Source of the DNA: Sphaeroforma arctica JP610
Taxonomy: Eukaryota
Assembly: GCF_001186125.1 (NCBI RefSeq)
Contig: NW_014040269.1
Span: 5,493 to 69,492 of the forward strand
Length of the DNA: 64,000 nt
Reading direction: 5' to 3'
Below, piece by piece: positions 3,700 to 64,000 of the stretch (positions within the stretch are counted from its first letter, which is position 1; the number at the start of each line of letters is the position of its first letter). Under the pieces are notes generated by a model. That model was not told where the DNA came from, did no database searches, and was given only the letters and a program-made list of their open reading frames with translations. The position numbers and the translations under genes were made by a program.

Positions 3700-6600
3700 A
3701 GGGTTTACGGGTTTTAGGTTTTTATCTTGATTATCGAAAGCATCTGAAGTCAACTGAGCGATTGTACCGGCTATAAAGCGTGTACGGTGGTATGTATATC
3801 CTCTCTTATCCGTTCTCCATATAATGTCTTTAAACTCAGAACGATTAAGAGGGGCATTAGAGTCGTGTCTTCTTGCGAGAATAATCTAAGTAGTCGGAAT
3901 ACAACTAGTGCCTATGTTTAAAGCACTGGAACCGTCGGGTGTATTAACGTCAGCTACAGAGATTATATATGGTCCTATCCATTTAGATGTTTATACAGTA
4001 GCATCGGAATTACGTTGACGGATGTTAACTCTGTCTCTAACCCGATACTCTGCTATCTTTTTGGTAGCGTTCCATTTATTTTGCCTTTTTAATAAGGAAA
4101 TATTGCGTGATTCTCGCAAGCAAGGATATACAACGTTATAAATACATTGTACCTTCTCTAACCATGGTAACTCATGGTGATTAGGTTCGTCCTTGTTAAA
4201 AGGTATTTTTAACTCACTATATCTGCCACGAAAATAGGGAGCGGATGTTGTACCTGTAACCGGATCAGCACACTCGTCCATCTGTGTTTGTACCCACTTA
4301 AGGTGGTACGGTCAATCATCTGCATCATCCGTTAATGCAGTACGTAAGAAGAACTTAAGTCTTCTATGGCGCGTTTCATTCGCGCCCTGTGTTTGCGGTT
4401 TATATGGTACACCCCTTTTATGGCATATGCCTGATACGAGTACTAACGATTCCATTCCGTCATCGCAGAACTCGCTACCGTCATCAGTGCACATTATACC
4501 TGGCCACCTGTGGTCAGCAAAGACTTGGCAGTATAATTCTGCCACGGTCTGCGTACTCTTGTCCTTTAAAGGATAGAGCAAGTTATACCATGACGCCACA
4601 TCAAAGAAGTGGCATACGTAACGATCGCCTGTGTGCTCGGACGTGGGCAAGTCAACCAGATCAATGATGACCCTGCGCCATGGAACATCTTCAGTCACAC
4701 TCTTAAGCGGTGCGAACCCATAGCGCTTAATCTGGTTGAGATCACAGTCTGTACATGACTGATATACTCTGTCAACAAAAGTTGCCAGCTTAGGGTGCGC
4801 GATCCCATTTCGCTTAGCATCTTTAAGTGCATATACTACGTTCTGGTGCTTCAGCTTTTGGTTTTGCGTCAGCCAAGCAAGAATATTTTCATCATTGTAC
4901 TCCTCCAGAATAAAGGTAGGGTGTTGAGAATCCACTTGCGTGGTCTCTAAGTCTGTAGTGTTTCCAGACTCCTATCCTTCTTTCGCATGAGTGTCATAAG
5001 TGCGCTCGTGTGCGTTTGATACACCTGACCTATTTAATAGTCGCATTATATGTGTATATGCTTCGGGATTATCTTTCATTAATTCCTTTAAAAATAGGGT
5101 TTGAAAGACTTCGGTCTTGGACTTTATGTTATTAAACAGAGTCCTAGCTAGAGACTGACGCTTCTTAACATTAGTGTCATTAGTAGATTGTATTTCTTGT
5201 GCACAGACTTCAAGTGCTGTGTTGCCTTTGAACTGCTTAACGCTCAATTTAGTAGAGAGTGGAATATCTGATTATTTGACCTTGTTAAGGAAGGTCTCAG
5301 AAGGGGTCCATTTGGTTGTTCCAATGGGACCTATACGACATATTATAGTATGTCTCCCGGGCGTCTTCTGGACGGCTCGGGTACCATGATATAGGAAAGT
5401 ATCTACTTCCCTATTTAAATATTTTGGCTCCCATTGTATCATGCTTATTAATGTATTGAGCCATGAATCTTTACTCCGTAATGGGCAACACAACGTGATG
5501 GTAGCTTTGTGTATATGAACATAATTTAGTATTTGGGCAATTAACTGCCATGGTGGATTAGCCCTCGCATTATGTTCGGAAAGGTCTAGTTCCAAGGCAT
5601 CTCCTAAAGGATGATTTAAAGTCCTGTAATTCTTAAGTTGTGCATTATGATGTGCAACAAACATGTCAACTGTATGTGGCCCAAATATCTTTTGAGCCAG
5701 TTCAAACCACCTGGGGTTACATTTCCAAGCAGTGGCTAGTAACTCACGTACGGATTTATTAAAGTCCGGTACAAAGCGTGATAACATATCCGGTAAATGG
5801 TTATGTATCCCTGGTAGATGTTTGATATCAAAATGAAACTTTGATATTGTATCCTGCCATCGGCTCAGTAATTGAGAGTCTGGCTTCATTTCCTTCATAT
5901 ATTGAAAGGACTTCTGATCACACATCAGCGTAAAAGCTGTTCCGTATAAGTAATCGCGGAAGTGTGCTAAAGCTGCTACTATGGCTAGTAGCTCATGCTT
6001 CACAGTTGAATAATTCAACTGTGATGCATTCATTGATCGGCTAAAGAATTGTATATACCTAGGTTTATTAACTATAACCTGGTATAGTACACCTCCGAGT
6101 GCTAAGTCTCATGCGTCCGTTGCTATTTCAAAAGGCACGCCATCGACTGGTCCTTGTACAACAGGGGCTTGTTGGACTGCGTGCTTGAGCGCTTTAAATG
6201 CGTCATCAAACTCTTTAGTCCACAAGTCTCCTAGTTTGCCTTTATGACATCTTAAGTGTCCAAAGGGTTTAAGATAATCAGCCAAGTGTGGTACTCCATC
6301 TGAAAAGAAGTTTACAAACCCACACATGCTGTTCACATCTCTTCCTGTTGTTGTTGTTCGCCAATCTAACAAGTGTTCCACCTTACCGGGGTCGATTTTA
6401 ATACCTTCCCCAGATATACGGTAGCCTAAGAGCTGTATTTCGCTCATGGCGAAGTGACATTTCTTCTCGTTAATCTTGGTTTTGTTCGTTGAGTCTCTTA
6501 AGGACTCGCCTGACTAATGTGGCATGTTCGCCCTTAGTCTTAGAAAAGATGACTATGTCATCTATATAGACTTGCACGCTAGGTATGTATGCAAGCATTT

Positions 6601-7575
6601 CCTCCATTACTTGTTGGAAGAATACTGGTAAGGAGTGCAACCTGAAAGGTGCACCTCTAAACCTGTATTGTTTACCTTTCCAGGTAAAACTAAAGTGCTT
6701 ACGATGGGGCTCATAAATTTACATTTGATGATACCCCTGTGTTAGGTCTATGGATATAAACACCGTAGCACCTTCCATTCGTCTCAGTAACTCGTTTATA
6801 CGAGGGATATGGATACTATGAGTAGGCAATAACTTATTTATTGGACTCATATCTAGACATACTCTGGCTTTCTTAAATGTTCCGTCAAAGTTGTGTTGAT
6901 CAACTGCCAATAATGCTAACTTAACTGGCGTTTGTTGGTAAGTGATTTCGATTACCCCATCGGATAACCATTCCTCAACTTGTTCTTTAACTACAGCTTC
7001 GTGTCTCCAAGAAACATAGTTTCTTGAAGGGCATTTGGGCTTAGTAAAGTCTACCTTGGTTGAGTCAAGGCTGACATATTCGTCGTTAAAACGGAATTTT
7101 GCCCAATCTGTGATCTTTATCTTCTTATTTACTAGAATCAGATCCATGATTTTGTCCGCAAAGTCAGTTATTAATGCCTTGACTGTGTCTGACGGGGGCT
7201 TATATGGTTTCAGGCAGTTATCGTCTGATTGATCCTTTAATGGATCTATGTTATTTGGTAACCCAGTTACGGTTATACCCAGAGTGAGTAAGTCACTCAT
7301 TCCGACTATTAAGTCGTACTTCTGTGATATCTTAACTATCACAGCTTGGGTAGTGATATATCTAGCATCGGCCAGGGAGATTTTAACATATGTGGCCATT
7401 GTATCACACTTAGAAGTTTTGTCATCTGCTAAGATTAGGTGAGTAGTTTGAGTTCGCCTTTCAATGTCTTTCATTAATGCAAAGCGGTCGGATATACATG
7501 AAATTTCTGAACCAGGATCAATCAATGCAAGGACTTTATTTCCATTGCAATATACAGGGATTATTACACGCTCGT
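3700..7575 (-). pseudogene. pol of Gypsy element 1
   Basis: ORF fragments 6719-7525 (PR/RT), 6109-6447 (RT/RH), 5272-6033 (RH plus MTase), 4312-4935 (INT core), 3991-4281. A degenerate chromo-like tail (FKDIIWRTDKRGYTYHRTRF...TSDAFDNQD) runs to about 3720. Confidence 0.9.
5330..5727 (-). CDS. Dam-type N6-adenine DNA methyltransferase domain within pol of element 1
   Basis: Uninterrupted and in frame with RNase H: WKCNPRWF...FGPHTVDMFVAHHNAQLKNY...GDALELDLS...ANPPWQLIAQIL...ATITLCCP...W. NPPW at 5548-5559. Confidence 0.85.
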
Positions 7576-9843
7576 CTAAAGAGTCGTTCTATTTCCTTTG
7601 TAACGATTGTACCTGAAAGTACTTTCACTCCAACTTAATGTCGGGCTTTTGTCACAAGACTTGGCGTGATAGCCATTGGTCTTCTCACACTTGTCACACT
7701 TAGTAAGAAAGTGTGTACATGTGGATGCATGTCTGCCATTCCAATAACCGTTAGGGGTCAATTGGTACATATCATACCCACACTATGCGTCGGCACATTT
7801 CTTAATCTCCTTAAATGGAGGTTCCTTGTCCTTCGCCTCCGCGCGTGCCCGTTTATTGGGCCGCGTTGATTGAGTGGAGTCGCGAGCACGTGTCTGGTTA
7901 GGACGCGTCTGATGAGGTTTCTCATATGACGTCTGGCGTGAGAGATATCCTTGATCAGTGAGCTCGCGCGGTTTCTTATGTACCGCCTTCCCCTTCGAGG
8001 CTACTCGCGTGTGCGGGAAAAAAGGTGGATACAGTATCAAAAAACTGTTCCCACGTAAGTCGGGATAGATGAAACTTTGTTTCATGTCCCTTGTCTCGAG
8101 CTTCAGTGGCGTATTTACGTCGCAACTCGGTGTACAGACTTTCACGGTCGTTGTTCCCTATGTTCTTACAGAAAACATGCATACCAGGAACTCGTACCAT
8201 CGCTGCGCATTGTCTTATCAAATTTCAGAATATAACTCTGAATAGGAGTATTCTCAACTGGTTCAGTTAAGATTGAACTCAATCCTGGACTTCGCATGTC
8301 CTTGCTTAATAAGAACGTAACCAACCAACACATAGCTGGCCAGTCACGACAAGTGTCGAGCTCATGCTGGTGTTGCTGCAGGATCAAATAACTTGTTCCT
8401 GTAGGGTCAAACGACTGCATTAAAGCAGAAATCCATTGCTGGGGAGCGATATCATTCGTCTCCAGCATGACCGTAAACGCATTAAGCGTACGGGTTAGCG
8501 TGTCGAGGTCATGGTTGTTTATAAACTCGACTTGCTTGCTGTTGGCATCCCAGTTCGACTTAAGTAGACTGATCTGTCCTTTGTACTTCTGGTTATCCCG
8601 GTGGTCTTGCCCACGTTGGGCCTGAAGTAGCTGATCGATGCGCTTCTGCTTGATCGCGATCATATTAACAAAATATGATACGTCATCAGCACGGTGCTCG
8701 GCATGGGCGATTTCCATCTTAATGGTGTAATCGTCGACCGACTTATTAAGTTCGGTCACCTCGTCAGAGTGAAAATCCTCTGCGGGCTGGTGTAATGCTG
8801 TGCGATCGATTAAATTCGACATCGTTAACACGTTTACGGGAGTGTTTATTACCCCTTGTAAAGTCTATGGTCGAGGCCTTTCGGTGCTCTGTTCCTTGGA
8901 TAGTAGTTGGTATTATAATCTTGAGTGATTCATGCGTCTGGATAACATATCCAGTCTTAACTGGTTTCCGACGATTGTCATCCCAGTTGGGTAAAGGTGG
9001 CGGAGTATTTTTACCTGCCTCTAGGTCTATAATACCCTCAAGGACGGGCGACTCGTGGCCGGGCGTTAGAACAGGCGAATAATTAGCCTGGAGTTCTGGT
9101 GGTAGTACCTCATAAGGTATAGATAAGCTGAGCACATCTGGCTCATCTGCCACAGGTGTAGCGCTCAGGCCTTTACGCTTTTCGGGCGTAATTGCCAGTC
9201 GACGTTCTGTTCACTTCTGTAAGGCTTCAGTAATGCCCGGAGAAACATGCTCGCGTAAGTGCTGTGTATGTTTTCCTGATCTATACATTCGATCTACATG
9301 TTCAACAGTCATGCCTTCCATAAAGGCGGCTAACTGATTCTTAAGATCAGTGTTTTCAGTAATTAACTTACCTATGCGCGTTGATTCAGTGGTCTCGGAC
9401 GTAGATTCGGGTTTGCCACTTGAGCTTGCCTCCTCTTCTGGTTCCGGTATAGGTACCTTCTGAGATTCGTCTTTGTCCCATATAATTGGGGACTTTTCTT
9501 TCTGAGTTTCGTCAGAAGAGTTGGTTGGGGCGTCTTGAGACGTATCGCTTGCCTCACTTCTTGGCTTCGTAAATGCAAGCTTTGAAGTTGAGGCAATAGT
9601 TGGCCCTCGGGCTCTATCTGTAGGAGTAGTTTTAATCGGAGTGGCTACATCCTCATCCGAGGCATTGTCTTGACTATTATTGTCGGAGACAAGTGCTTCG
9701 GCTACGGTGCGGTTAAACGCATCGGCAGCAGCTGCGGTTGCTTCTGCGGCAGCGGTAGCTGTTGCAGCGATAGCAACTTTTCTTTCCATCATTTTACGTT
9801 CGGCCTTGCGTTTCTTTGCAGGCGTATTGTCTTTCTTTGTCAT
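7576..9843 (-). pseudogene. gag-like region of Gypsy element 1
   Basis: Fragmented ORFs 9211-9843, 8764-9153, 8166-8831, 7783-8221 and 7576-7770 lie upstream of the protease. C-terminal Cys/His motifs (CDKCEKTNGYHAKSC). Confidence 0.7.
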
Positions 9844-10305
9844 AATCTTAACTTATGACATCAGTCTTATTCTCTTAAGGAATGACTGTGCTTAAGAAAA
9901 AATTCGTGGTAGTTATCTACCTTTACTTTTAAGTAGTCTAAATAATGAATACCTTTGCTAAATTTGAAATGTGAAGTTTCGGTCTATCAAGGCGATATTA
10001 ACGCCTTAGAGTAATTAAACGCTTAGGTTAAGTCTAAGTATAGTTGAATTCGAAATAAATAGACGAAATGAGGTATTAAAGTTAGGTATGCCTCGTGAAA
10101 ACCGCAATACTCTGAGGGATTGTGAGGCTGAGACATTGCCTATATATAATTCTCTTAGTACTTTTTTCGCCGAAGGGATTTTATTTAATGTTTCGTTGTC
10201 GCTCTATTAGAAACTACGGTATGTTTCGTTGGGGCGAATCCGAGAGACTCAAAAAATCCTATCTTTAGAAAAAAAGAAAAGAAGACTAACCAATAACTTG
10301 CCACT

Positions 10306-10517
10306 TGTCAAGAATTACCGACTTAGCCTTCATCAGACTGGCACATCTGGTTGGCTAAACGGAGGATAAACTAAGCAACGCTAATAGAATGCATTAATTA
10401 ATAAAACCATTTTGGAAACTTAAGTTCCTCGCACTATTAAGAGTACGTTTAGAGTTTACGTACTGCTTAAGAGTACGTTTATAACATTGAGTCTAATGTG
10501 GAGGCCCGGCTATTACA
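10306..10517 (-). repeat. 5' LTR of Gypsy element 1 with adjacent PBS-like site (10290-10303)
   Basis: Minus strand reads TGTAATAG...CTTGACA, a 2-nt spacer, then TGGCAAGTTATTGG. Homologous to 304-593. Confidence 0.7.
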
Positions 10518-11572
10518 CTGATAGTACGATCAAATGGATTGAGAGGCTGAAGAATGATCGTTTCTGTAAGGAGCAGACTGGTCAACCAAATCTACATATA
10601 CTTCCTGCTTTATTTGAATGGCTAAACAAAGACAACACACTCGGCGACATGTCTATGTGGAATCAGTAAATGCGACAGAAATGTATACAGATCGGTATTC
10701 TCGAGGACTGTGCACTAATTGATAGTATGGACGACTCAGATGATGTCCTATTACGATCAGGGGAAAGAATAGAAGTAAGTTATCGACATGGCATCGGTTT
10801 ATAATATTCATATGTGTTTTCCGAAAGTCCCGCAATAACCCGGGGAGTATAGGGTGATATTTTGACGTAACTGGGGATATAGCAAAGTATGTATATATTA
10901 CATTCGTCATAGCAATCAGTTATGTATTCTAACATAGACTGCCTTTTCCTACAACCAAGCAAACAGCCAAATATACGCCTGAGTGCACTCGTATTGCACT
11001 CCATTTGAACAATGATGTGGGAATACTTATTGGTGATGCTGCAGAGTGTAGGATGGAGAAAGCGGGCTGTGACGTGACTGCACAAAATGTGTGTTATAAC
11101 GATTACAAATCATTTCCAACGTTGAAGTTTATCGTTATATTCGAGGGTGGAATATACATCGTAGACATTGCAAAATCATTCACTGGATCTTCTACCGATA
11201 CTGGTATGCACAACTCAGAGAACTATGGACTGCGTATGGTAAATTGTGATGGCAGTACAAAGATTGCATATATGTTCGATAAGGGGTCGATAGATCGCTA
11301 CGAGCTGGATAAACTTGGCATATGCGTGTGTACACCTAGAAAAAATGATTGGTCAATATGCGTTTAGTGAGGAACGGTCACAGGCAGACCGTGATATAGC
11401 GCGCGAGAGAATTACTATCGAACGCAACATGGAGGAGTTACGCAATTATGCCGGTTTCGGGGGTCTGAATAAAACATTGTCTGAGATAGATATAGCTGAC
11501 CATGAAGCGCAGGTGGCACGAGGATTGGTGAACTTGGATGCACCAATCACAGATTGGTGGATGCCAAAATAA
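10518..11572 (+). pseudogene. ISL2EU/Harbinger-type DDE transposase (DDE_Tnp_4-like), 5' part interrupted by the LTR
   Basis: LIGDAAECRMEK...QNVCYNDYKSFPTLKFIV...FTGSSTD...YMFDKG...CTP, then (frameshift) QYAFSEE...DIARERITIERNMEELRNY. Upstream HTH-like region (KLSTWHRFIIF...). Confidence 0.8.
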
Positions 11573-11699
11573 GAGCAGGGTGAAGACTTAGTGGATTCGG
11601 ATATAACATTTGATGGAATAGATTTTGATGTTTCAGACGAAAGTGATAACGACTTAGATGTAGTTAAATGTTAAATAAAGCTTTTATTGATAATTTATT

Positions 11700-14264: not shown

Positions 14265-14490
14265 TGCTTGTGGTTACTTATATGCGCGTACAAATGAACT
14301 ACTTATGTGTGCACATATACACATAAATATATTTTTCTTATCAGTATGTTACAGTCAATATTAACTATCAAATTATTGGCGCGCACTTCGCTATAGAATA
14401 ATTTTTAATTCCGGGACGGCTCAGACGGGCCAGACCCTGTTTATTAATTCAGTGGGTGAAGTGCTATATTTTCATCTCTTTTGTCTAATA

Positions 14491-15112
14491 CGACACCCGT
14501 CACTATAAAATTATTAACGCCCGAGCCCTAGTATTCCTATGTATATGCCTATATGGTGAATTTGTTTTGAATTTATGTTCTAAAAATACAATTGCGGTTA
14601 ATGAAATCACAGAATAGGACAAAATCCCTTGGACCTGAAATTTACAACAGAAGGGGACAAAACCAAATTCAACATTGTTGAACTACAGTGCAATTTGTGC
14701 AAACCAAACGATTATATTTTACATAGCCCTCTTTTCTTCTCTTGTGTTTTATGTATATTATAAGAAGGCTGTGGGCTATGAAACGAGGTGTTTTTTAATA
14801 ATATTCAGAACTTCAGAAGTATGGATCCACGAATTCATGCTCACACAGGTTTAACAGAACATTGGCTCTCTCTAGCTAGTCTGAGGCGTTGTTTTGTATT
14901 TCAGGTGACATGTGTAGATTATGTACCGAAAACTGATACTTGAGTGTTGTAATAACTTGTATCGGTAATTTTTTTTGCGGTGTACATACTGAATAGTTCG
15001 GTACTTGTGGCCATACGTGGGCACATAAATATCAACCCTACCTTTGCGAACGGACCGGATGCGGTTTTGGACACGGGCTCGGGTGATAATAATTTTATAG
15101 TGACAGGTGTCG
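14491..15112. mobile_element. Tc1/mariner-type MITE
   Basis: 38-bp TIRs CGACACCCGTCACTATAAAATTATTAACGCCCGAGCCC / GGGCTCGGGTGATAATAATTTTATAGTGACAGGTGTCG, flanked by TA on both sides. Confidence 0.8.
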
Positions 15113-15149
15113 TATAGGCTAGGTCATGTATGTACATCTTTTGAATGTC

Positions 15150-15480
15150 CCTTTTCCCCCGCACAGGGGGGTATAAGAGTGCTGTGATGGGGGTGAGCCT
15201 ATGAGAGTGTGAGGTATATTTATTTTAAAATTTGCATAGTATTTTTAGATAAGCTCGAAATTTGAAAATTTGAAAATTTGTTGATCAATAAAAAGTGTGT
15301 TCAAAGAAGTGTGATTCTATTGTGGCTTCGAAAACCCTGTCAGTTGGCAACAATTGTTTAATGTTTCTGATTTTCTGCGACAGATATTTTCAATTTTTTC
15401 CCCGCAGGGGTATAAGGATACACTCATTACATTGTGATGGGTGTGGGACTGTGGGGTATATGTTCAAATTTGCATAGTTG
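15150..15480. repeat. Degenerate repeat, unit about 240 bp, whose sub-block recurs at 20750-20882
   Basis: TTTTCCCC-GCA-GGGGTATAAG...AAATTTGCATAGT at about 15152 and 15397. AAGCTCGAA...GTCAGTTGGCAA...TTTCTGATTTT-TGCGACA at about 15250 and 20750. Confidence 0.65.
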
Positions 15481-15601
15481 TAAAGCCAACTGGTCGTGAC
15501 ACGAAAGTACAAGGGTTTGAGAAAACTAAGATTTATTTGCCTTTGGTTGGTCCCAAGCTCTACAGTTGAAAAGTGAGCTTGGGAGAACCAAACCTTCGTA
15601 T

Positions 15602-18600
15602 TGATATCGGAGCAAACGCAAAGCCCGTTGGATTCGTCAAGATAGTTGGCCCGCGCAAATATCCAACTGCCACGTTTGCGATTTTTCCAAGTTAATACCA
15701 TTATAGGTACACAACAGCAGTAGGTCGTGGGTTAAGTATACCTGTTGGGGGACTCATAGTACCAAGTGACTGCCAAAAAGAAATAGGAATAGGGAAATAT
15801 TTGTCCGGTGGACGGGGAACACTAGATATAAGGCCAGCAATAGTATAAGGCCATGAGGAGGCATGCCAAGTAACTGGTGCTCATTTTTTAGAAATGTGTC
15901 CGGCGCATGTGGAATAACAATAGGCATAGCTATTAGCGAATGGAAGGAGAAAGGAAGCTATGAACATGAAGCCCAATGTGGCAAGATAGCGATAGCCTTA
16001 CAGTAGCGAGTAGCTAGGAAACGGCGGAAGAACTGGTGGTAAATGGGCCACGGTGGGTTAACTAATACGAAAGAACCCGTAAGGTTGAATTATTCAGCTC
16101 GGCAACGTTCGGTACCCCCCAATGCTGCACAATAACGGGGAAGATGATGACATGTGGAACTCGCATAGAGATCAACATCAGACACCACCCATTTCTTGAA
16201 GAAGAGGGAAATCCATGCGGGATTGATCATCAACTCACCTGAATATGCATGAGGGTGAGGAGATAGAGTTGCAACTAGCGAAGGATGCGGCGGAATCTCA
16301 TCCACCGGGCCCCAAGTAACATGTTTATGAACAAAAAGCATTCTGGGGTCCAATTGCGCAGGCTGGCGGGAAAGCCTATCTGCTACGTAATTCCATTTAC
16401 CGGGTATGTGACGGATATCCACGCGATGGTGGCGGATTTTCTCCACGAGACGCTTAAGGCGATCACCACGAGCAGTCTTAAGGAAAGAGAAATTAACATG
16501 GAAGAAAGTAAGCACATTAAGGTGATCCGTCCAGACAGTTAGGGCATGATAATTGGCAGTAATAGTCATCTCCTCCTTATCAACAGCATAAGCAATAGCC
16601 ATAATTTATAGGTCACAAATATGATAACGACGTTGGGCCGCATTCAATTTGGTACCTCGGTATGAGAATGGAAAAAGACGGTCGATGCCATTAATACAAA
16701 AACCGTCAACACGAGGGTCAACCACCTGAGATTAATCAGTAACCACGGTGGAATGGCAAGAGTATGTACTTGCAGGAGCCAGGAAAAGTTTCTCCCGCTC
16801 AGAAAGTGTTTCTTGCTGGGTTTACCTGACTCGTTTATGGGCCGGGAGTGTAAAATCAGGGGTCGTAGGGAAGGGGAAGGAACACTTCTGAGACGAAAGG
16901 CTACCGAGAGGTCGTTGCTGTGGCAGTGGGGTAGGGGTACGTTGGGCAGCAAGGCGGCGCTTTTGGCGGGATAGGCTTTTGTCTAAGGCAGCAGCAGCAG
17001 TATTGAGTCGCTTAGAACTCAAGGGTTGAACCCAATCCTTTGGGAAAGGTGCAGGCAACTCACCCTGACGAGGAATCCAGACAAAAAGTCCACAACCAAT
17101 GCCAATGGGGCATGCGTCAACAAACATGTGGAGATAATGGGCAGGGTCAGGGGAAACTAACATAATGGTACCTTGAATAGCCTCGTTAATCATCGTATTC
17201 GCAGCATGACAATCTGCAGAATAATGAAAACGTGTATTCTTAGACGTTAAGTCCGTCAATGGGCCATCATAATGGCCAAATTGGGGATATATTGAGACCA
17301 CCAATTGAGAGTGGCACAAAACACTTCGACTTTGTCCTTGGTTTTTGGTTGGGGCATAGAAACAATATCATTGGCGGTATTCTGTAATTGATGTATAATT
17401 ATGGATAGTTTGGCGACCATAAAATATTTTGGTACTTCCCTAAGGAGCATTGAAAGACACTTGGAAGCCCCCGTAAACGGATTTTCATTTTAACACAAAT
17501 ACGCGCATACGCAAGCTTATCATTCCAGTGCTGAGAAATTGCCTCGCGGCTATAGTGGGCCTTGGCGCCGTCATCGACAAAGTGCTTGAGGGCTTGGCGG
17601 AGGGCAGCAAATAAACCATCCACAAAGGCTTGCAAATCAACGGTCATCATTTTCACCCCGAAGACTCCATTGACAGGTTGCCAAACATCACCTGTAGACG
17701 TTATCCAGATAAGATACCGACGAGAGCGCTTTGTGCAACGCAATTGGTTAAAGCTGCATGCCATATACATTGTAGAAACAATGTCACCCCGCCGGATATG
17801 ATCTAAACATTCCTGCCCAGTAAGGCATGGGGTAGGAAACAACGTCAAAATTTTCATTGTTAACCTTATAATTTTGGCAATAGCGAACATCCTTGATAAT
17901 CTTAGGCTTCACACGGGGGTTCTTTCGTGCCAAAACAGCACTAGACATATAGGGTGAGAAATAATCTCCAGGTTCTATGACACCGCGAGCGTAGTCACGG
18001 GCGCATATCTCTTGTTCTCATTGTATATACTGTGGGTTCTTGAGCTTGTATATGATACGCTTAGGCCTGGCATTTGCCTTGATTTTTATATCGACCTCAT
18101 AATCACGGATAGTATTGTGATTGGATTCGTCGTAACGAATGCTATTGAACAAATCTTTGAACTCTTTGACCTGTTGTAGTGTTTTGTTCAAATAAAGAGC
18201 AGTAGCATTAACTCCCATCCCAGTTGTATTCCTCAAGGGTACCCGGAGAATCACGGCAACGGCGTTTGAATTCAACAACAGCAGCCTCATCAATAAGAGC
18301 TGGTACCAAGAGGCCAATATAAGGGTTAGACGGAGACGCCAAAGAAGATGGAGACGCAGACTGAATGACAGGTGCACGTTCTGAACTGAAGGCCAAATGT
18401 GGGTTGTTCGGTAGATTTTTTCCAGTAGGGTTTAGGGTTTTTGGTGCGCAAGAGAATATATCTCTGAGTAATGAAGCTTAATAAAAAGTCGCATCCATTA
18501 GGAATTTCATCAGAAAGGTAGAAAACAGAGTCCTTTGTTTCAAAATAACTCGTTTGGGAAGCATTAGTAAATATCTGTATAAGCACAGAGATATCAGTTT

Positions 18601-21330: not shown

Positions 21331-21456
21331 CAATAAATGCATGGCCCTCTGGATTTGGGCCTCGAGCAGAAATCAGGTTTCTTCCGACGACAATCGTAAC
21401 TTTTGGCAGATCCAAAGCAACCCAAATCCAGAGCGCCATGGCAGATTACATAGCCG

Positions 21457-24400
21457 TTTTAGGACAAACCTAGTTTGTCCACTTTTAGGTCTTAAACCTC
21501 AACCGAGTTTTGTTCCCGACTGCCACGCGACTATTGAACGGTCCATGTGCAGCAGAATATTCTGTTCATTATATGTAAGTTTTTCATCTTGTAATAAAAG
21601 TTTAGTTACTAAGAAACATCTGAAGGATAGGTATATATAGGTTATGGGCCTTTTATTGACTTACATATCCGTTCACTAATCTACGATGCTTTCTAGCTGA
21701 CCCAAAATCCCAACCATCTCTTGGTCGATCCTGACTGGATTACTGATCTTGATATGGCATCTACGGCCACCAGTACAAATGATCTTTCTCCTATTCTTCA
21801 CTACACCCCTCCTACTGAGGTAGTTACTGAAACCTAAAGGAATGGACACCTGCCCAGACGGCCTCCATGAAAGAGCTCTTTATAGATGGTCTTTCTGACG
21901 TCGACAAGTACCATACTCAGAACGTCTATCTCATGTCCTTTAAGAATCGCGATGGCATTACCATTTACCATATGCTAGAGTATCTTGAGAAGCTGCATGC
22001 GACGCCTTCGCTCTCCTCCAATGACGAAGCGATCCCAGGCGTTGCACGAACTACACCAGCCGCTTAACTAACAATCCAGGATGTTGTACGGATGATAAAT
22101 GAACTTAAGACAGCCACCTAAAAGCCTAACAATCGTCAAATGCTCTGTTTTGTGTGTCAGAAGTCGACACACGTCTCCTCTCTTTGTCCTAAGGCCTGCG
22201 GTCGTTGTGGCGACATGACCCACAACAGTAGATCCTGTACCGCACAGTCCCTGAAATGCACACAATGTTCAAAGAAAAAACATTTAGCGATTGTGTGCTC
22301 AAAACGTAATAAACATCATTTTCCCTATCCTGGCATCTCTACCATTGCACGCATAACAATACCCACTATTTGTAAAGCTACGCAATCTTCTCTATACATA
22401 ACACTGACTCACTACTTGTTGACGGAGGCGCCACAGTAAATTATATGCACTGCTTAGCACGGAAAATACTCACAAACATAGAAACGGGTAAATTTCTTTT
22501 ACGGCTGGCCGATAACAGCATTAAATACATCACTGTCCGCGGGCACATGACCTCAACTAGGCTCTACATACCTGGATCCAGATCTTACCCAAGGACTCTT
22601 CGCCCAAAACAATCTACAAGATTGTGGTTTAACCGTAAAGTTTACCGGCGATAGCCAAGAATGCTACCTTGGACTCCGCACGTCCTCCATTACGCTACTA
22701 CCAACTTCAAGTGGCTACTATGTCTCCTACGACTCACTACAACAACTATTCTCTCCTCCGAAGGCCTCACTTCTGACTACTTCACGTCCACTTTCTACCC
22801 TGCCCACCACCCGCGCCCCTCTACTGGCTAATCCATCTCACAATCCTACTGTCTTTCTCCCACCGTCTAACGTAGCTACGATAACGGCCAGCAACTCAGC
22901 GTCACCTACCAATTTATCTAGCATCACACCTAACCCTACCAATTTATCTAGCATCACACCTAACCCAACGCAACCTTCCCCCCCTCCAACAACATTAACT
23001 TCTCTTCCAGAAACTACCCACCCTCAATCTTCAACAACACGTACACCACACACTACTATGACATCGCAATCGCAGAGTCACTCTCCGTATGGCAAAGTAT
23101 TGAGAATATAACACTCACACATCCTTCCCCTCTTAACGTCACGACAGATAAGTGGGTGTTCAACTCCGAACTTCTTAAGGCGGCACTAGACTTCTTAGGG
23201 GATACACCTATACTTGACATATGTGCTTCTAAAGTCACTGCCTAATTTCCCCGATACGTGTCACCAGAAGGTGGTGGTATAGTATAGCCCTCGACTGGTC
23301 CGATATAGATCTCCTCCAGGAACTGGCATATGTTTGTCCACCATGGTCACTCATCAAGGACACACTCGCAGCAAATACAAAGGCAGCTAGTACATTAGTT
23401 CTTGTCGCACCCCTTCGCCCTGCAGCTCCTTGGTGGCCGGCACTCCTCTAGCACATCTACAAAGTCAACCCTTTATAGTTCAGAACACGGCGACTTGGTA
23501 CCTCTTCGGCTGGTAAACCCAGGTTGTGATCTCAACCTGGCTATTGCCTATGCGAAGGCTAACCCAGAATTTCCATAACATTGTAACACATGTATTGAGG
23601 GCAAACTTAAAGCTACCAATGTCCCCCATCAATCTACTTACACAATCTATGGACCCGGCGAGAGGTTCCACACTGACCTCCAGGGGCCCACTCCCACCAA
23701 GTCGATATGAAAATATCTACATTATGAATATGTTTGATGCAAGTACGCGTTACGGTCTTCACAAAGCCATCGCTAACGAGCAAACCATGTTTAATAATGA
23801 TAATCAATTACTTACGGACGTCCCAGCCTTCTGGGTACCGGACACTCTTACGGCCGATAACGACACGCCGCATACAACTCAGACGTCCGCCACCTTACTC
23901 TCCATCGCAGAATGCCAAAGTCAAACGTCCACATGACACACTGAACGGTTTGATTCGATTACTACTTATTGACTCCGGGATGCCCCCGTCCTGCCTGGGA
24001 AGATGCTCTCCTCTGGGCAGGCGATATTCGTCACGGGACTCTCGGAGAAAACGACAAGCTCCGCACTCCCGCACAAACATTTCTCCAAGAGGCTCACGCA
24101 CGCGATCCCAAAGCTCGGTTCGGCTGTGTAGTTATGTTTTAACTCCGCGGAAAAGCTGCCACACGCGCCACGAAGCATGAACCACAAGTGGGTTTTGGCG
24201 TCTTGCTCGGTCGTAGTTTTAACTCTACCCCCTACTGTTACCGAATACAGAAATTCGCTACGCAGCGGCAAATCGATACCCAAGATGTTCAATTTATTGC
24301 GGAAGAAAACGCACAGTGGTCTCCCGATGGGCGTACTGCCACCCTCTCCACGACTACTAGCTCGTATAATATACATCCTGACTGGTCCCTAACGAACAAG

Positions 24401-26480
24401 CCCCTCTGACACTGCTATTCCTTTTCAAGGACATATTCTTCCGGTTGGCCCCGCTTGTACCAGACGTTCAACAGGCCAATCTACCGCCTGAACCCCAAAA
24501 CGCACCACTGCCCCCCGCTTTCACTGATCCTTCCCCTTCACCTACCACTAGTTACACCCCACCCCACCTACTACACACCAGCCCACTCCGACCTCACAAC
24601 CCACCGCACACACCCCCACTACCTTACCCACAACCCACTGCACACACCCCCACTACCTTACCCACACCCCAAACGCTCCACCTCCCTCATCTTCCACTCA
24701 CACCTATGCCTCCTACCCCCTGCCACCCCTCCTTTCACTGTCACTTCTCACCAACCCATTCCACCACTGACAGCCCCTTACCGCCCACACCAGCCACACC
24801 TCCTGTAATATTTTTTACGCCGCCGCACCCATTCCCCAGTTCTTTAATCACTGTCCCTCGCCCCTGCCAACAACCACCACTCACATCTCTCCCCAGACCT
24901 GACACTCGTACACCACCGGCGCCTCCACCACCTAACTCTTCTTCATTCATCGATTCCCTCCCTCTACACCGCATGTCGCCTTTGTCGACCACATTTAGCG
25001 AGGCCAGGCCACCCGTCGACTCGGCCGAAGCCTCGATCGCCTACCTCCGTGAGCACCCTGCCCACATTTCTTCCGTGCGCACTATTACACCCACGACTCG
25101 CTCCAAAATCACCCTGTTTGAGGCTGCATCTTTCCAAGACCCTAACGTCACCAAATCTATTGCAAGCGCACAGAAATCCAAATCGTGGCCTGCATGGGCC
25201 GCTGCCATAGACACCGAGCGTGCTCATCATATCCGGAATGACCTCGCTGATGTCATCCCCCTGACGGACGTCCCCAAGGACTCAAAACATCATTCATAGT
25301 AAATATGCATTTGCACTTAAACATGACGAGCATGGCCAGCTGACCCGCTATAGGGCGAGGATGGTTGCTCGTGATGACGAGCAACAACACAGCGATAGTT
25401 TCACCGATACTTACGCACCGGCAGTCCATTCTACCGCATACGTCTCTTCTTTGTTAAAGCTACTTTTGAACGGAAAGTGGTCCACTACTTCGACGTTACA
25501 TCCGCCTATCTTTACAGCAAACTGAATTTTCCAGTCTATATGCTGCCACCAAAGGGGTCTGTCGAACTGGGTCACTAGCCTCTTAATCACGTCCTCAAGC
25601 TGAAGCGCGGCCTCTATGGACTTAAACAGTCCGGCCGACTCTGGAATTTAGACATTGGTGCCAAGCTTCGCCACGCTGATTTTCAACAATCGGACGCTGA
25701 CGAGACCATCTGAATTCATCGTTCCCAGGACCTTGTCGTCGTCATTTATGTCGATGAGATTCTTCCGGCCGTTGACCCACAGACTACGGACGATCAATGA
25801 CTCTACATACAACTCTCTACCCACTACAACATGACTAGCCTGGGCATAGCTCGTCATGTCGTCGGGTTCCGTGTTATACAGGATGGATCAGGGACTATCT
25901 CCCTTTTACAAGACGCATATATATACAGCGTATGATCGACACATTCCCATGTCCAGGACACTCCTCCGAAACCAACACCTGGCACTGACACACATCCAGG
26001 AGAACTAACTGGCGAGCCATTCTCTGGTCGATTCCGCAGTCTTCTTGGCGCCCTGAGCTTTGCTGTCAATATGACACGTGTCGACATAGTTTGCACACTT
26101 AGCCAACTCGCTGCATTTTCTGCTGCTCCATTGGTTCCGCACTACGATGCTCTCATTAGGATCCTACTCTAACTTGCAGGGACGATTAATTTTGCACTTA
26201 CATTTCATCCTCGTACATCCACTCAGACCTTGGATATCGCCCTGTTATCTTATGCGGACTCCGACTGGGCAACAAGCCCTCTCACCCGGAAATCACAAAC
26301 AGGTACTCTTATCTGTTTCAACTCTAACCCCATATATTGGCGGTCGCAAAAATAGAAAACGGTTTCCATCAGCTCTGGAGAAGCCGAATATATCGCAAGA
26401 TCTGATACAACCCGCTCTAAAGCCTGGATTCACAACCTAATGACGGCATTTGGCTACAAATTAACTCTTTCCAACCCGCT
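21457..26480 (+). mobile_element. Ty1/Copia LTR retrotransposon (degenerate): gag-PR-Dam MTase-INT-RT-RH; 3' end lost
   Basis: PBS-like GGTTATGGGCC (21640-21650) and three CCHC knuckles (22140-22300). Integrase: CNTCIEGK, HTDLQGP, PPYSPSQNAKV. RT: RARMVAR, DVTSAYL, LKRGLYGLKQSGRLWN, IYVDE. RNase H: YADSDWA...RKSQTG...SSGEAEYIA. Copia domain order (INT before RT). Confidence 0.92.
23147..23490 (+). pseudogene. Dam-type adenine methyltransferase domain inside Copia pol (not visible in the supplied ORF track)
   Basis: Manual translation: DKWVFNSELLKAALDFLGDTPILDICASKVTA*FPRYVSPEGG, then (frameshift) ALDWSDIDLLQELAYVCPPWSLIKDTLAANTKAASTLVLVAPLRPAAPWWPALL. CPPW at 23335-23346. Confidence 0.78.
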
Positions 26481-28994: not shown

Positions 28995-31163
28995 TGTAGT
29001 AAACACGTCAAATACGGTCATAAATCCTACTGAGGCTCAGTGAGCCTCGGTCAGGTATATTTATTAAGTCACTGGACTGTTTACGTGAGTTCCGTAGAGT
29101 CTCACCATATGCGACTCTATGGAACTAAAACCTGCTAATTATGTATATCCTAAACCTAACCAGATTTATCCCATCAAGGAGTTTTATTACACTCCCCCCA
29201 AGCTTGAGCATCACTGGTGATGGGAGAGCTTCTCTAAAGATGAAATTCCTTAAAATCATTGTCTTTGATGTCGAGATTATATCCGCCTGTCGCGGATCAA
29301 AGCTGTGCCTGAAGCAACAGTGCGTAACGTATTGCAATTACCTTGGAATAACGGTCCTTGCCGACCGGAACACTGGCTATGCGACGAAACTCAGGCCGCC
29401 TTGCCTATGGGAACATTTTAGGTCGAAGACGACCCATTAGCTGGCTCATCACCTTGGAGGTGGGGTGCTCGCAATTAAGTCTGCTCGAGCTAGAGACTAT
29501 TCGTGGTGCCTAGAGAATAGGAACACTTTAGGGTATAACCGACCTACAAACTGGCGTGTGCCTTCATTGTTGAAACAATAAGTATTTTAATAAAATAAGT
29601 TTAGTAGGGTCCGAAGCTATTACATCCCTGGATTCTGCAACTCTCTTCTCTTCTTTCTCGTTTGATCTGCCTTATGGTATGCGGCAATGTCATTTGGGTC
29701 ATCGAAGGCTTCTGATGTCTCCCATATGGGACTGCTTTCCTTCCACCGAACTAAGTATTCCATGACGCCGGAGTGGTCATTCTGGCGGTGTCGGATGATG
29801 TGCCTGAAAGCCGAACCCTGTTCTTGCCACATCTCGTTCGCCAGAGGTGGATCCGTTGCTCTATGTACCAAGCGCAACAGTTCCACTCTGACCGGCTTGC
29901 CCTTGAACGTGCTTGGGGTGGTGCCGTCTTTGTTCGCCAGGATATATCCTTGACCCTGTTGTTGTTTGACCACGTACGGACCAAACATTGGTCGCATTGC
30001 CTTTGTCGTTCGGCCCTCCGACTTCACCAATAACCACATCACCGTCCTGGAACGTGACTAAGTCGTACGCATGGAGTCCATCGAACTGCTTCGCCAGTGA
30101 GTCTGCATACTTATCGGTAGAATAGTATCGTGTAACCTATCCATGCGATGGGCCCACGTCTCATTGGTGACTGGCTGGCTATCTGGCAGATCGTCGGTAA
30201 AATTTGTGAACGGAACATGCTTTCTTCCAAAGTACGCACTGAATGGGGCTGTCTTGTGCCTGCGTGAGATGCGGAGATTCTGACAGAGCATGATCAATGG
30301 CAGTCTGACGTCCCACGCCGTTGGAAGCGACCTGCAGAGTTTGCTCACCCTTCGTGGATGTCTCTGTGTCTACGTTCCGCAGTTCCCAAAACATGCGGCC
30401 GGTATGGTGGTGACCCGGTATGGTGGTGACTTTGCGGGCATGATGCCTACCTCTTGCGTGAGTAGCCGTGGAATCTTGTTGGAGAATTCGCCCCCTTCGT
30501 CTGACTGGAGCTTCCGTGGGAAACCATGTGCTCCGAACACTTTCATCAGTTCGGCTGTGACATCTTCCGCGGATTTGCTCTTAGTTGCAATCAAGGTAGA
30601 GTAGCCTGGGGCTATGTCTATAACATGGAGGATTTACTTATATCCTGTCGTGGAGATGAGTGGCATGGGTATTATGTCCACCTGTATGTGGTCCCATGGA
30701 TACTTCGCATCGATGCTTATCAGGGGGTGGGACCCTTTTCTCAACACTCGTTGCCCAAGGCATGGCCTGCAATTGCAGCGTATTGTTTTGGCCAAGTCTA
30801 GTGCATTCGGCCACGAGTGACCGTTCTCCCGAAGTTGGGCCACTGTATCCTTTGCACTGTGATATCCGATCTCGTGTTGGCTCAGTGTAAGTTGGGGGCG
30901 TCTTTTCATTTCATCGGCACTCGGGTGGTCTCCCATTGCTACCTCCGTTGTGGCGATCGAAATCAGCCTCGCTATATCTAACGGAGTCGATCTTTGATTG
31001 GAGCGGGGCTCTGCATACCCTAGGCTGCGCGAGAACGAGGTGGGTAGCTGATAGCCAGACTTTGGGCCAACTTGTGCTATAACCGTGTGGCCCCATGGTG
31101 TCTTTCCACAGGCGATCTTGCCATCCTTCAAGAAAGTATGCGCTGTTCTTGGAACTAAGATTG

Positions 31164-31170: not shown

Positions 31171-31194
<24 letters not shown>

Positions 31195-34526: not shown

Positions 34527-55592
<21,066 letters not shown>

Positions 55593-61395: not shown

Positions 61396-61620
61396 TGTAA
61401 CTTATGCATACTTCTGACATACAAATAACTTGTACATGCTTCTGACACACATGTAACTTGTACATACTTCTGACATGCATGTAACTTGTACATACTTCTG
61501 ACATACATGTAACTTGTACATACTTATGACATACATGTAGCTTATACATACCTCTAACACACATGTAACTCATGCATACTTCTGACAAACATGTAACTTA
61601 TGCATACTTCTGATATACAT
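61396..61620. repeat. 28-bp minisatellite, about 8 copies
   Basis: TGTAACTTGTACATACTTCTGACATACA repeated head-to-tail with no spacers. Confidence 0.92.
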
Positions 61621-61859
61621 CTGGCATGCATTTATCTGACTGCTATGCATAGCGTGCTATGTATATTTGATATAATTTTGGAATATGCTGGGAGCGAGCG
61701 CTAGCGAGATATTTTGATTTATTTGATGGAGGCAAAGGGAAGTAAATGAGGGCCGTTTGTAGGGTGTAGCCCTTCTCACTTTTTTGACACGTCAGATATT
61801 TGTGACATGTCTGTGAACGTCAAATCCTCTTGTCATTTATTGTGTGTTTACAGTATTTC

Positions 61860-62712
61860 AGGACAAACCTAGTTTTATTTTTTAGGTCGTAACCCCCAAC
61901 CGGGTTTCTCTTTCGCCTCGCACAGGGGTCATATTTGCCCCATGTGCACGACGACTGGTTTATTATAAAAAGGTTGTCTATATGAAATAAGCAAAACAGT
62001 CAATGAGAAAGTTGGTTGATAGGCAGATACCTATATAGGCTATAGGCCTTTTTATTGACACTCTATCAAATTCTACATCATGCTTTCTAGCTTATGATTC
62101 CTACGATTATATGATCGAGCTTGAAGAAGAGGCTTTAACATCGATCACTGGCTTGCCGGACTGGACATGGCTACGACATCCACCAGTAAGACAGATCTAT
62201 CCAAGATGATCTACGTTCCCATCAACGATGTCGTAGATGAATCATACGAGAAAGTTCGGTAGACTCTGAAGAAAAACTGGACATCGGCTCAGGCGGCATT
62301 TGTCAAAGAAACTGATTGCATCGACATTCTAAAGTCTCTTGACCAATACTACGAAGCTAAAAATATTACTGTAGGTACGATTTGTATCTCTCTACGCCTG
62401 CAGCTCGCACCAACCATCCGCGTGGTATACCCTTGGGTCCTTTGAATCTTCTCGAGTGACGCTTTAAACGCCAGTTTAAGAATACATATTGATGGTACTC
62501 TTCTCCGTACTCTCTCACGGATGCAGGGTGAGTCTCTGTGCAGCTGGTCTCGCCGAGTCGAAGATATTCTCCTCTGGGCGAAAATCCAAGGCACTACGTT
62601 CTACCTTATTTATTGACGACCTGGCCGTCGCTGACAAGCAGCAGAACAAGAACCTGTATCTTATGTCATTCAAGTCACAAGATGACATCACCATTTATCA
62701 CATGGCGGACTA
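61860..62712 (+). mobile_element. 5' fragment (LTR, PBS, partial gag) of a Copia related to the element at 21457
   Basis: AGGACAAACCTAGTTT, TATATAGG-TAT-GGCCTTTT and ATGCTTTCTAGCT are shared with 21460-21700. Gag LFIDDLAVADKQQNKNLYLMSFKSQDDITIYHM matches LFIDGLSDVDKYHTQNVYLMSFKNRDGITIYHM. Confidence 0.85.
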
Positions 62713-62713
62713 A

Positions 62714-64000
62714 CTACTCCCACGGTGGGTTCACCTATGCATTCACTTCATACGCCCACTTCTGTAGGAGCGCATTCTGTTCTTTGGTATAGTATTTATC
62801 TGTGTGTGCATTGTGTGCCGATGCAAACAGATCTACGGTGAGTTTTCCAAACCATCTTTCAGCTTTAGCATTCAGTATATAGCTTTATGGTTATAAGAAT
62901 GTTAGTTTCCAAGGCGGTGTCCTCTTGGCTGTTATGTGTTGTTTTGTTCGCGTCTTGCAATACCTCTGAAGTTTTAGTATTAAACGTGTCTTCGTGTATA
63001 CGCGACTACATATCTGCCATCTGGTTGTCCTTGCCTGGGACGTGTATGATGGAGAAATGGTGGTGGAATATTTTTGCTATCCATTTGGTTAACATTGGGT
63101 GTAACGTCTGTTGGCTGTTCATTTGCGTGAGCGCTTTATGATCCGTCCATAGAGTTATGTCCCCTCATTTGATGTATTCGGAGAAATGTTCCAGACTGTA
63201 TACCAGTGCTAGCAGCTCTTTAGTGTTTTGTCATAGCGTTGTTGTGCTGGATTCATGCCTTTGGAAAAGTAGAGAATGTCTCTTCTGACCCCATTGATGA
63301 CTTGAAATAAACATCCTCCTATGCTATAGACACTAACATCGTTCATGATTTGAAACTGTACCCCATCAACATGGTATACTTGTGTCGCCGAACATGCGAT
63401 GGCTTCTTTGAGTTCTACCTACTTCTTTCTGAGTTCCGGAGTCCATAACATGAATAAGTTCTGGTCCATTTTCCCTTTCATTAGGTTCCGGAAGTGTTTA
63501 GTTGTGTAGGCAAAGTTGGGGACATAGTCGCGCATATAGTTCGCGAGTCCCACCACTTTGTGCAGATCTCTTTTTGTTCTGGGCAGTGGCCAGTCCATCA
63601 TCCTTTTCTGTTTTTCAGAATTTGCTTTGAGTCCCTTTGTAGTGACTTTCACCCCCAGAATGTCGACCACTTTGACCGCGAATGCACACTTGTTGTGATT
63701 GAGTTGGAAGTTTGCTCCATTCAGTCGCTTGATTACTTCACGAACTGTCTTGCGGTGTTCTTCTTCTGTACGACTCGCAACGACTATGTCATCTACATAC
63801 ACTTGCACACCTTTGATGTCTATGAGCAAGTTTGCCATGACTCTCTGGAACTGTGCTATGAGTACGACTCGCAACGACTATGTCAGCTACATACATTTGC
63901 ACACCTTTGATGTCTATGAGCAAGTTTGCCATGACTCTCTGGAACTGTGCTATGAGTGAGTGTAGTCCAAATGACGCTGACTTGAATGATTATTGCGCTC
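62714..64000 (-). mobile_element. Ty3/Gypsy element 5 fragment: RT-RH-Dam MTase (truncated; continues past the window end)
   Basis: RT VQVYVDDIVVAS and DWPLPRTKRDLHKVVGLANY; RNase H KELLALV, WTDHKAL, HVPGKDNQMAD. Then WFGKLTVDLFASAHNAHTDKYYTKEQNALLQKWAYEVNA*VNPPWE, with DLFAS at 62819-62833 and NPPW at 62720-62731. Confidence 0.88.

Follow-up and report, generated by a model that had tools for sequence, protein, structure and literature searches.

Dam-like domains in degenerate copies of five LTR retrotransposon families of Sphaeroforma arctica, and their possible capture by a Ty1/Copia element

Do LTR retrotransposons of both the Ty3/Gypsy and the Ty1/Copia type carry a Dam-like adenine methyltransferase domain, and how could a Copia element have come by it? 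The question is raised by a stretch of 64,000 nucleotides of Sphaeroforma arctica JP610 (the window, that is, the whole DNA analysed), in which the original prediction had placed one such module at five sites, in divergent host elements.

Recovery of the domain

The host elements (A to E), their Dam-like domains and the adjoining repeats are given below; P0002 and P0003 are two outside proteins.

3386..3697, no strand assigned: inverted copy of the 5' flank of A (9903-10216), 88% over 315 bp
3703..9852, minus strand: element A, degenerate Ty3/Gypsy (Pfam; tblastn against P0002 and P0003)
5317..5727, minus strand: Dam domain of A, open and in the same frame as RNase H, 244 bits
15241..20886, minus strand: element B, Ty3-type, LTR-bounded (LTR pair; Pfam)
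15850..16233, minus strand: Dam domain of B, 17.8 bits, two in-frame stops (translation)
21456..26457, plus strand: element C, degenerate Ty1/Copia (RVT_2; translation)
23153..23475, plus strand: Dam domain of C, 24.5 bits, one stop and a frameshift near 23282-23286
29674..31161, minus strand: element D, Dam C-terminal tail, integrase and chromodomain
61820..62704, plus strand: second Copia remnant, 5' region and gag start (DNA matches to C)
62693..64000, minus strand: element E, Ty3-type RT, RNase H and Dam (RVT_1 1e-12), running off the window
62866-62693, minus strand: Dam domain of E (Pfam Dam 2.5e-11), NPPW at 62731-62720

A profile HMM of the Dam region of P0002 and P0003 only, scanned against the six frames of the window, matched 5772-5317 (244 bits), 23299-23460 (24.5 bits), 62863-62693 (20.3 bits), 31161-31057 (20.3 bits) and 16236-15889 (17.8 bits). 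The next match in the window scored 3.5 bits, and the top score of 20 codon shuffles was 6.0. The profile thus recovers exactly the five predicted sites and none other above noise, which, along with the Pfam match at E, upholds both the recurrence of the module and its Dam-like nature. The expected match to the Dam family PF05869 was obtained in part: the 62.7-kb copy (E) exceeds the cut-off of 28.1 bits (44 bits, E 2.5e-11), whereas the 5.5-kb copy (A) matches weakly (E 0.002) and neither the 16-kb copy (B) nor either half of the 23-kb copy (C) gives a match, and four of the five copies lie below the cut-off.

The domain shares the D-L-F-A ... Y ... W ... NPP motifs of phage Dam (PF05869), to which E is ~40% identical, but differs from it in being fused within a eukaryotic retrotransposon polyprotein. 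E matched 38 of 50,697 phage records (top E 4e-7), the best 10 of the 38 being all annotated as DNA methylases or methyltransferases, and the ESM atlas neighbours of the A domain include a PF05869 set at 0.92. An AlphaFold model of A (pLDDT 44) had no significant Foldseek match (threshold E 0.001), the Dam profile found 0 matches among PDB sequences, and PDB searches with the B RT piece and the C RT gave no useful match. Viral contigs searched with the C RT, A Dam and C Dam likewise yielded nothing.

The catalytic consensus of N6-adenine methyltransferases is (D/N/S)PP(Y/F/W). NPPW is present in A (~5559-5548), B (~16059-16048) and E, CPPW replaces it in C (23335-23346), and the D fragment is without the motif region. 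Pairwise identity among the domains of the window is 17-40%, so that the hosts represent distinct families, as predicted. All five copies are pseudogenes, their longest open frames spanning 152-336 aa; RT, RNase H, Dam and integrase follow in a single run in A only, and B is the only one of the five for which a direct LTR pair was detected.

Host elements and conservation of the domain

Four Dam hosts (A, B, D and E) are of Ty3/Gypsy type and C is Ty1/Copia. Element A comprises gag-like ORFs (labelled by position only), protease, RT, RNase H, Dam, linker and DDE integrase, with Pfam matches to Asp_protease_2, RT_RNaseH (2.8e-23) and rve (8.9e-6); the Ty3/Gypsy assignment of RT and RNase H in A and E was made by Pfam and tblastn. 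The C-terminus of the A integrase is cut near 3697 by the inverted copy at 3386..3697. A direct copy of 10134-10279 lies outside the inverted one at 3156-3301 (90% over 146 bp), the repeats of A being one 146-bp direct and one 315-bp inverted.

Element B consists of gag (CCHC), degenerate protease, RT, RNase H and Dam (RT_RNaseH 1.7e-6; zf-CCHC 0.003), its pol frame ending with the Dam domain. It is bounded by LTRs at ~20886-20742 and 15398-15241 (119 of 141 aligned bases identical), with a PBS-like site at 20734-20726 and a PPT-like site at 15405-15394. Pfam detected no rve match, neither inside the LTR-bounded stretch nor 3' of it, and no tyrosine recombinase was matched in the six frames of 10600-15900 or in the sense frames of B. 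In D, whose 5' part is lost at the N gap 31195-31622 and which has no RT in the window, the Dam tail (31161-31057; 47% identical to P0002, E 2e-9) is accompanied by an integrase core (~30699-30415; rve 7e-8) and a weak chromodomain (~29799-29674; Chromo E 8e-4, below cut-off; CBX7 chromodomains E ~0.005). E is broken off just past NPPW, ahead of any integrase, and no LTRs of D or E were found within the window.

P0002 and P0003 are intact single-ORF relatives with the order RT-RH-Dam-INT, to which A is 51-59% identical across the whole Pol. P0003, of 1400 aa, has Ty3-G Gag-Pol as its top PDB match (E 6e-63) and carries CPPW, while P0002 carries NPPW. Among these Gypsy relatives, identity is 67-68% for Dam, 61-62% for RT, 65-73% for RNase H and 56-58% for the integrase core, against 22-26% for the adjacent linker. 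Judged by sequence identity, conservation of the Dam domain equals that of RT and RNase H, in agreement with the predicted constraint on it.

Membership of the DIRS group was rejected, as DDE integrases are present in A and D and there is no recombinase match; with RVT_2 in C, the hosts are Gypsy and Copia, as the original prediction held. According to the available text of PMC3266345, DIRS1-like elements share the order RT-RNase H-methyltransferase, and the B pol likewise ends with the domain. They differ from the present elements in the DDE integrases and the Ty3-type RNase H of the latter, in the direct LTRs and the PBS- and PPT-like sites of B, which has no recombinase match in or beside it, and in the repeats of A, which do not follow the ITR-ICR order described there. 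A position of the domain after RNase H holds for the Gypsy elements but not for Copia C, where it lies between protease and integrase.

The Copia element and previously described systems

The RT of C is of RVT_2 type (Pfam E 4e-25 and 2.6e-4). Read from the translation, its order is gag zinc knuckles (22122-22330), protease (DGGA ~22415), Pro/Thr-rich linker, Dam, integrase, RT and RNase H, so that the Ty1/Copia order protease-integrase-RT-RNase H is present; protease and integrase were called from motifs by eye, neither having a Pfam match. The Dam domain abuts a remnant of the integrase zinc finger, and its two halves map in matching order to a profile built on the non-Copia domains (20.5 and 1.1 bits). 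It is nearest to P0002/P0003 (31-32% identity), which match only 23293-23448 inside C. Atlas neighbours of the C piece are weak (0.83-0.85) and serve as leads only. Alignment with the Dam profile and a CPPW shared with P0003 ruled out a C5-cytosine enzyme in C.

No 5'/3' LTR match for C was found within the window; in a public contig 26457 is followed by 21456, as would be seen at the 3' LTR of another copy. The second Copia remnant shows 72-89% DNA identity to C at 21457-21510, 21634-21660 and 21903-21974, and stands head to head with E, at the breakpoint of the E Dam.

Ty3/Gypsy elements with Dam (DAM-LTR retrotransposons) were described in a May 2026 preprint (Fernandez-Moreno et al., bioRxiv 10.64898/2026.05.21.726589), which names DIRS, Ty3/Gypsy and a hepadnavirus-like case as hosts and proposes that DAM-LTRs mimic active chromatin through 6mA. 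They were found mostly in AMT1-bearing species (9/13) with raised genomic 6mA, and in two ichthyosporeans they carried more 6mA and were more expressed. The preprint also reports that expression of Dam in E. coli did not raise 6mA, that eukaryotic DAMs are without the N-terminal catalytic part, and that DIRS retain the domain in lineages without genomic 6mA. Its description, a Dam-like domain with an NPP motif in a Ty3/Gypsy Pol that has a DDE integrase, suits A, D and E (the D fragment being without the motif region and E cut ahead of the integrase), and B apart from the integrase. In contrast, C is a Copia with CPPW, a motif absent from the preprint's descriptions, and D has a weak chromodomain, whereas the preprint's ichthyosporean lineage is without chromodomains and its chlorophyte clade has them. 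Screening by Pfam at E 1e-5 with RVT_1 trees, as done there, would leave C, B, A and P0003 undetected.

The words 'copia' and 'Ty1' have 0 occurrences in the main text of the preprint, and full-text searches of the open literature listed no Copia with an adenine methyltransferase. Of the novelty first claimed, the Gypsy-Dam fusion and the mimicry idea are already in the preprint, while a Copia-Dam was not found in print and, as far as the searches go, extends beyond the described DAM-LTRs. The available text of de Mendoza 2018 (PMC5890265) describes retrotransposon C5-cytosine methyltransferases in LINE, DIRS and Gypsy, and Symbiodinium Copia is there said to lack DNMT. Those elements likewise have a DNA methyltransferase captured into a retrotransposon coding region, though the domain of the window is of the N6-adenine type. 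Kuafuorterviruses were dismissed, the methyltransferase appearing only in a figure legend on the architectures of other elements.

Origin, role and significance of the domain

It is somewhat more likely than not (a probability of roughly 0.55) that a Ty1/Copia family captured a Dam-like domain from a co-resident Gypsy, probably of an A-type family, fused it ahead of the integrase and retained it by selection; the direction of capture is drawn from six sequences, without tree or root. The Copia lineage likely acquired its Dam separately from the Gypsy elements. It is rather improbable that C is instead an isolated chimera, with a piece of Gypsy Dam inserted in a dead Copia copy and never belonging to a transposing family. 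Such a chimera would suit the single copy in the window, its want of a Pfam match and a region that is a nest of interleaved elements, in which a Copia remnant adjoins the E Dam. It would also suit the searches for Copia-Dam relatives, in which the Dam-plus-integrase frame (0/635 candidates) and the catalytic half (0/11) gave no intact or long Copia-Dam protein, both being weak negatives. Metagenomes and viral contigs yielded no related locus; one metagenome candidate (L001; 19 of 64 parts scanned) was rejected, as it matches by chance, in a frame that does not code, within a GC-rich gene of patellin-like appearance. However, the C Dam lies on the Pol strand with no adjoining Gypsy RNase H or integrase remnant, one open frame (22964-23242) carries the linker into it, and its composition matches C (every Dam region best fits its own element, the margin for C being 5.5 log units or more). 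In other contigs, moreover, pieces of Copia gag (22094) or protease (22612) are linked to the Dam-end segment 23451-23495. The capture is further favoured by a contig of ~3x single-copy depth that aligns to 23287-23349, whose loose ends keep the frame and whose 20 flanking codons, by hand count, include 4 identical, 11 silent and 5 residue-changing. Against it stand the uncertain Copia identity of this contig, the sole contig joint between the first half of the Dam and the integrase, one side of which has 22 bases, and the failure to find an intact Copia-Dam protein or locus.

As to the role of the domain, there is about an even chance that the Pol Dam-like domain of these five LTR families, present here as dead copies, marks the new DNA copy and so mimics active chromatin. 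The domain would be carried inside the particle as part of Pol and would methylate adenine on the fresh DNA copy of the element; the insertion would then resemble active host chromatin, and at ApT the mark would be maintained by host AMT1, which would also promote transcription (as drawn from bioRxiv 10.64898/2026.05.21.726589). Lying directly after RNase H, as in DIRS, the Gypsy Dam probably remains part of the RT-RNase H protein, while that of C, just before the integrase zinc finger, likely travels with the integrase. Recovery of all five loci, the intact relatives and the conservation of their Dam domain, and the raised 6mA and expression of DAM-LTRs in the preprint argue for this combined account of capture and marking; the negative E. 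coli test, and the Cys that both C and intact P0003 carry in place of the catalytic Asn, argue against it. The same two observations, with the missing N-terminal catalytic part, are what would be expected if Dam served Pol, at least in CPPW lineages, as a module that binds nucleic acid or SAM without catalysis, and the host wrote any 6mA on these elements. The replacement of Asn by Cys requires two base changes, which makes simple decay unlikely, and the function of the DIRS methyltransferase is stated as unknown in the available text of PMC3266345. This alternative is nevertheless considered unlikely, since A, B, E and P0002 all retain NPPW, in domains 20-45% identical (the A/P0002 pair excepted), and E matches phage N6-adenine methyltransferases. 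Phage relatives of Dam are commonly protective. An active enzyme that guards the cDNA against host or viral nucleases, or methylates the transcript of the element, instead of mimicking active chromatin, would accord with the retention of the domain by DIRS where genomic 6mA is absent, and the atlas neighbours of C include the RNA adenine methyltransferase PCIF1 (0.83, a lead only); the prevalence of DAM-LTRs in AMT1-bearing species with raised genomic 6mA speaks against it and leaves it the most doubtful of the alternatives.

If the marking and capture account is true, Dam capture reaches a superfamily outside the 2026 survey, and one genome may hold several convergent 6mA-writing retrotransposon lineages, among them an LTR element that keeps Dam without an integrase. 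Pfam-threshold screens undercount Dam elements, as the copies under the cut-off show; C, having no Pfam Dam match, would be missed by them, and Pfam-invisible CPPW variants exist if the Copia capture is real. That a Copia of different domain order, in the same genome, took and kept Dam would tie the benefit to host chromatin and not to the type of element. There would then be a natural within-host comparison of Dam on RT with Dam on integrase, and of NPPW with CPPW, which may be read from existing long-read 6mA data.

Recovery of the Dam-like domain and the elements that carry it

The Dam-like feature in the window is real. With the domain of element A as query, 183 candidates led to two proteins from outside the window, P0002 and P0003, each of which is one open frame with the order RT, RNase H, Dam and integrase. 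A profile built solely from the Dam regions of these two proteins and searched across the window gave five matches (244, 24.5, 20.3, 20.3 and 17.8 bits), as against 3.5 bits for the next-best match in the window and 6.0 bits for the top of 20 shuffles. The five loci of the original prediction were recovered by a profile of outside proteins. They lie in the following elements, which are listed together with a host gene of the window:

Element A: 9852-3703, minus strand; Ty3/Gypsy, with protease, RT, RNase H, Dam (NPPW), variable linker and DDE integrase
Element B: minus strand, Dam at 15850..16233; LTR pair, PBS-like and PPT-like sites, gag zinc knuckle, diverged RT, Ty3-type RNase H and Dam (NPPW)
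Element C: plus strand, Dam at 23153..23475; Ty1/Copia (RVT_2 E-value 4e-25), in the order protease, integrase, RT, RNase H
Element D: Dam tail at 31161-31057, integrase and weak chromodomain; 5' part gone at an N gap
Element E: Dam at 62866-62693; Ty3-type RT, RNase H and Dam
Host gene: 34530-54100, minus strand; intron-rich Rav1/DMXL-type WD40 gene (Rav1p_C E-value 1.7e-11), its introns contain long (AT)n tracts as well as small gaps

The predicted kinship with Pfam Dam (PF05869) held in part, as element E is above the family cut-off (E-value 2.5e-11) and A matches at 0.002, while B and C are without a match. Independent libraries concur for the best-preserved copies, and the domain of element E also matches phage DNA methyltransferases. 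For the putative methyltransferase fold, a predicted model of the domain (pLDDT 44) gave no significant structural match.

P0003, a relative of A, has Ty3-G as its best PDB match. The integrase tail of A is cut at 3697 by an inverted copy (315 bp) of its own 5' flank, with a direct copy (146 bp) farther out, an arrangement that differs from the DIRS repeat order (PMC3266345); these odd ends are read as nested remnants. The flank repeats occupy 3156-3697 and 9903-10518, the 3' pair could fold as a hairpin with arms of 83 nt, and another piece of the 5' flank is found again at 383-594. The C-terminal 100 aa of P0002 and P0003 look by eye like a degenerate chromodomain, with no match in Pfam.

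The LTR pair of B is identical at 119 of 141 bases. Neither integrase nor recombinase was found in searches of this element, and 82 bp of its 5' leader (20630-20711) occur again at 15610-15691, past Dam, at the expected integrase position; the lack of integrase is either a family feature or a loss in this copy. The Dam tail of D shows 47% identity to P0002. Its chromodomain is under the Pfam cut-off (E-value 8e-4) and matches CBX7 at about 0.005, yet the top PDB row is an unrelated lectin repeat. The Dam of element E ends abruptly right past NPPW, at the start of an opposite-strand Copia remnant.

Constraint on the domain and the Ty1/Copia-type element

Among A, P0002 and P0003, Dam identity is 67-68% (two comparisons made), beside 61-62% for RT, 65-73% for RNase H, 56-58% for the integrase core and 22-26% for the adjoining linker. 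Dam is thus as tightly kept as the core enzymes and, as judged from protein identity rather than dN/dS, is under constraint. Since P0003 carries CPPW within an unbroken frame of 1400 aa, the Cys variant, which is also the motif of C, is more than mere decay.

The protease and integrase of C were identified from motifs by eye, and its Dam has a Pro/Thr-rich linker on one side and the zinc finger of the integrase on the other. Against a profile of the non-Copia domains both halves are collinear (20.5 and 1.1 bits), the first half weakly. Several observations support a genuine Copia family. No remnant of Gypsy RNase H or integrase was found in the flanks of the domain, and the linker continues into Dam within a single open frame. 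The base signature differs per element, and the Dam region fits its own element best in 5/5 cases, the tail of D being too short to count and the margin of element E being below 1 log unit; C leads by 5.5 log units or more, with chi-square p of 0.45 vs C, 0.003 vs A, 0.001 vs E and 0.10 vs B. Further support comes from contigs of 4 of the 24 listed runs. A contig at about 3x single-copy depth aligns to 23287-23349 in all four, its unaligned ends giving the same protein with the frame kept across the window's frameshift; by hand count, the 20 flanking codons comprise 4 identical, 11 silent and 5 residue-changing. Other contigs link 23451-23495, the Dam end, to gag pieces in two of the four runs and to protease pieces in one.

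The same reading is weakened by the 3x contig, which may belong to another element type, by the four runs, which represent one organism and some of which are possibly the window's own source, by the joint of the first Dam half to integrase, one side of which is just 22 bases, and by the protein searches, in which no intact Copia-Dam protein was found. On balance, the sequence evidence indicates that C probably represents a genuine Copia family with Dam. The closest domains to that of C are those of P0002 and P0003 (31-32% identity, as against 26% to A and E and 17% to B), a pattern that hints at capture from an A-type family.

In the ESM atlas, the domain of A (0.96) and weakly that of C (0.85) are near an unannotated eukaryotic cluster of 374 members, found most often in Preaxostyla; this cluster may be a further Dam-like family invisible to Pfam.

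Neighbouring features

The window is eukaryotic DNA (GC 42%) with assembly gaps, and it contains a nest of decayed transposons as well as the Rav1/DMXL-type gene. One of its host proteins has entries in NCBI and EukProt, and the resemblance to a lineage of the preprint discussed below suggests that the source may be an ichthyosporean. Between C and D, at 27040-29030 (plus strand), lies a decayed unit which we take to be Crypton-like, with recombinase-like motifs by eye (no Pfam match) followed by a GCR1_C domain (E-value 1.4e-5); it has no tie to any Dam domain. Decayed intronless frames at 11780-13720 (minus strand) match XPG_I nuclease (4.7e-9), and on the opposite strand 10930-11360 (plus) matches DDE_Tnp_4 weakly (0.026). 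A 50-bp inverted repeat (2249-2298 paired with 14371-14420) possibly marks the termini of a larger DNA element around A. A 145-bp unit is present three times in tandem at 20959-21363, in the interval that separates the 5' LTR of B from the start of C. Decayed frames at 31785-32606 (plus strand), with an integrase-core-like stretch by eye and no Pfam match, are probably a further element past the N gap. An intronless carboxymuconolactone decarboxylase family gene at 33440-33961 (plus strand; CMD 9.6e-10; singleton cluster) is possibly of bacterial origin.

Relation to published elements and the possible role of Dam

The comparison with print drew on bioRxiv 10.64898/2026.05.21.726589, PMC5890265, PMC3266345, PMC12695648 and PMC11673190. 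The preprint claims the first Dam in non-DIRS LTR elements, in five lineages that are Ty3/Gypsy-like or mixed with DIRS, from an hmmsearch screen of EukProt data at an E-value of 1e-5 (bioRxiv 10.64898/2026.05.21.726589); P0002 passes this threshold (7e-6), and A, B, C and P0003 fail it. 'Copia', 'Ty1' and 'Pseudoviridae' have 0 occurrences in its main text, and its supplements could hold a Copia case. No Copia element with an adenine methyltransferase was found in the literature search. Dam had been regarded at the outset as no standard domain of either Gypsy or Copia elements: the Gypsy case was described in the May 2026 preprint, of which the window's Gypsy elements are a further instance, and the Copia case was not found in print. 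The extensions not found in print are Dam in a Copia element, CPPW as a variant of the motif, and an LTR element that lacks integrase; they are based on one dead copy and partial contigs.

The Dam domain belongs to the Pol of several unrelated families and is conserved. Pol products of retrotransposons are packaged together with RNA, so a Dam fused behind RNase H or ahead of integrase would be there during cDNA synthesis and integration. DAM-LTRs occur mainly in species with AMT1 (9/13), and in two ichthyosporeans they show raised levels of both 6mA and transcripts; in the model proposed by the authors, 6mA is first placed by Dam on reverse-transcription intermediates and is then maintained by AMT1 (bioRxiv 10.64898/2026.05.21.726589). 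Methylation was not detected in their E. coli test (bioRxiv 10.64898/2026.05.21.726589). A non-catalytic role of the domain is unlikely, and a protective or RNA-directed one still less likely. Seeding of 6mA by Dam, with maintenance by AMT1, may be its role in these retrotransposons, with a probability of about 0.5.
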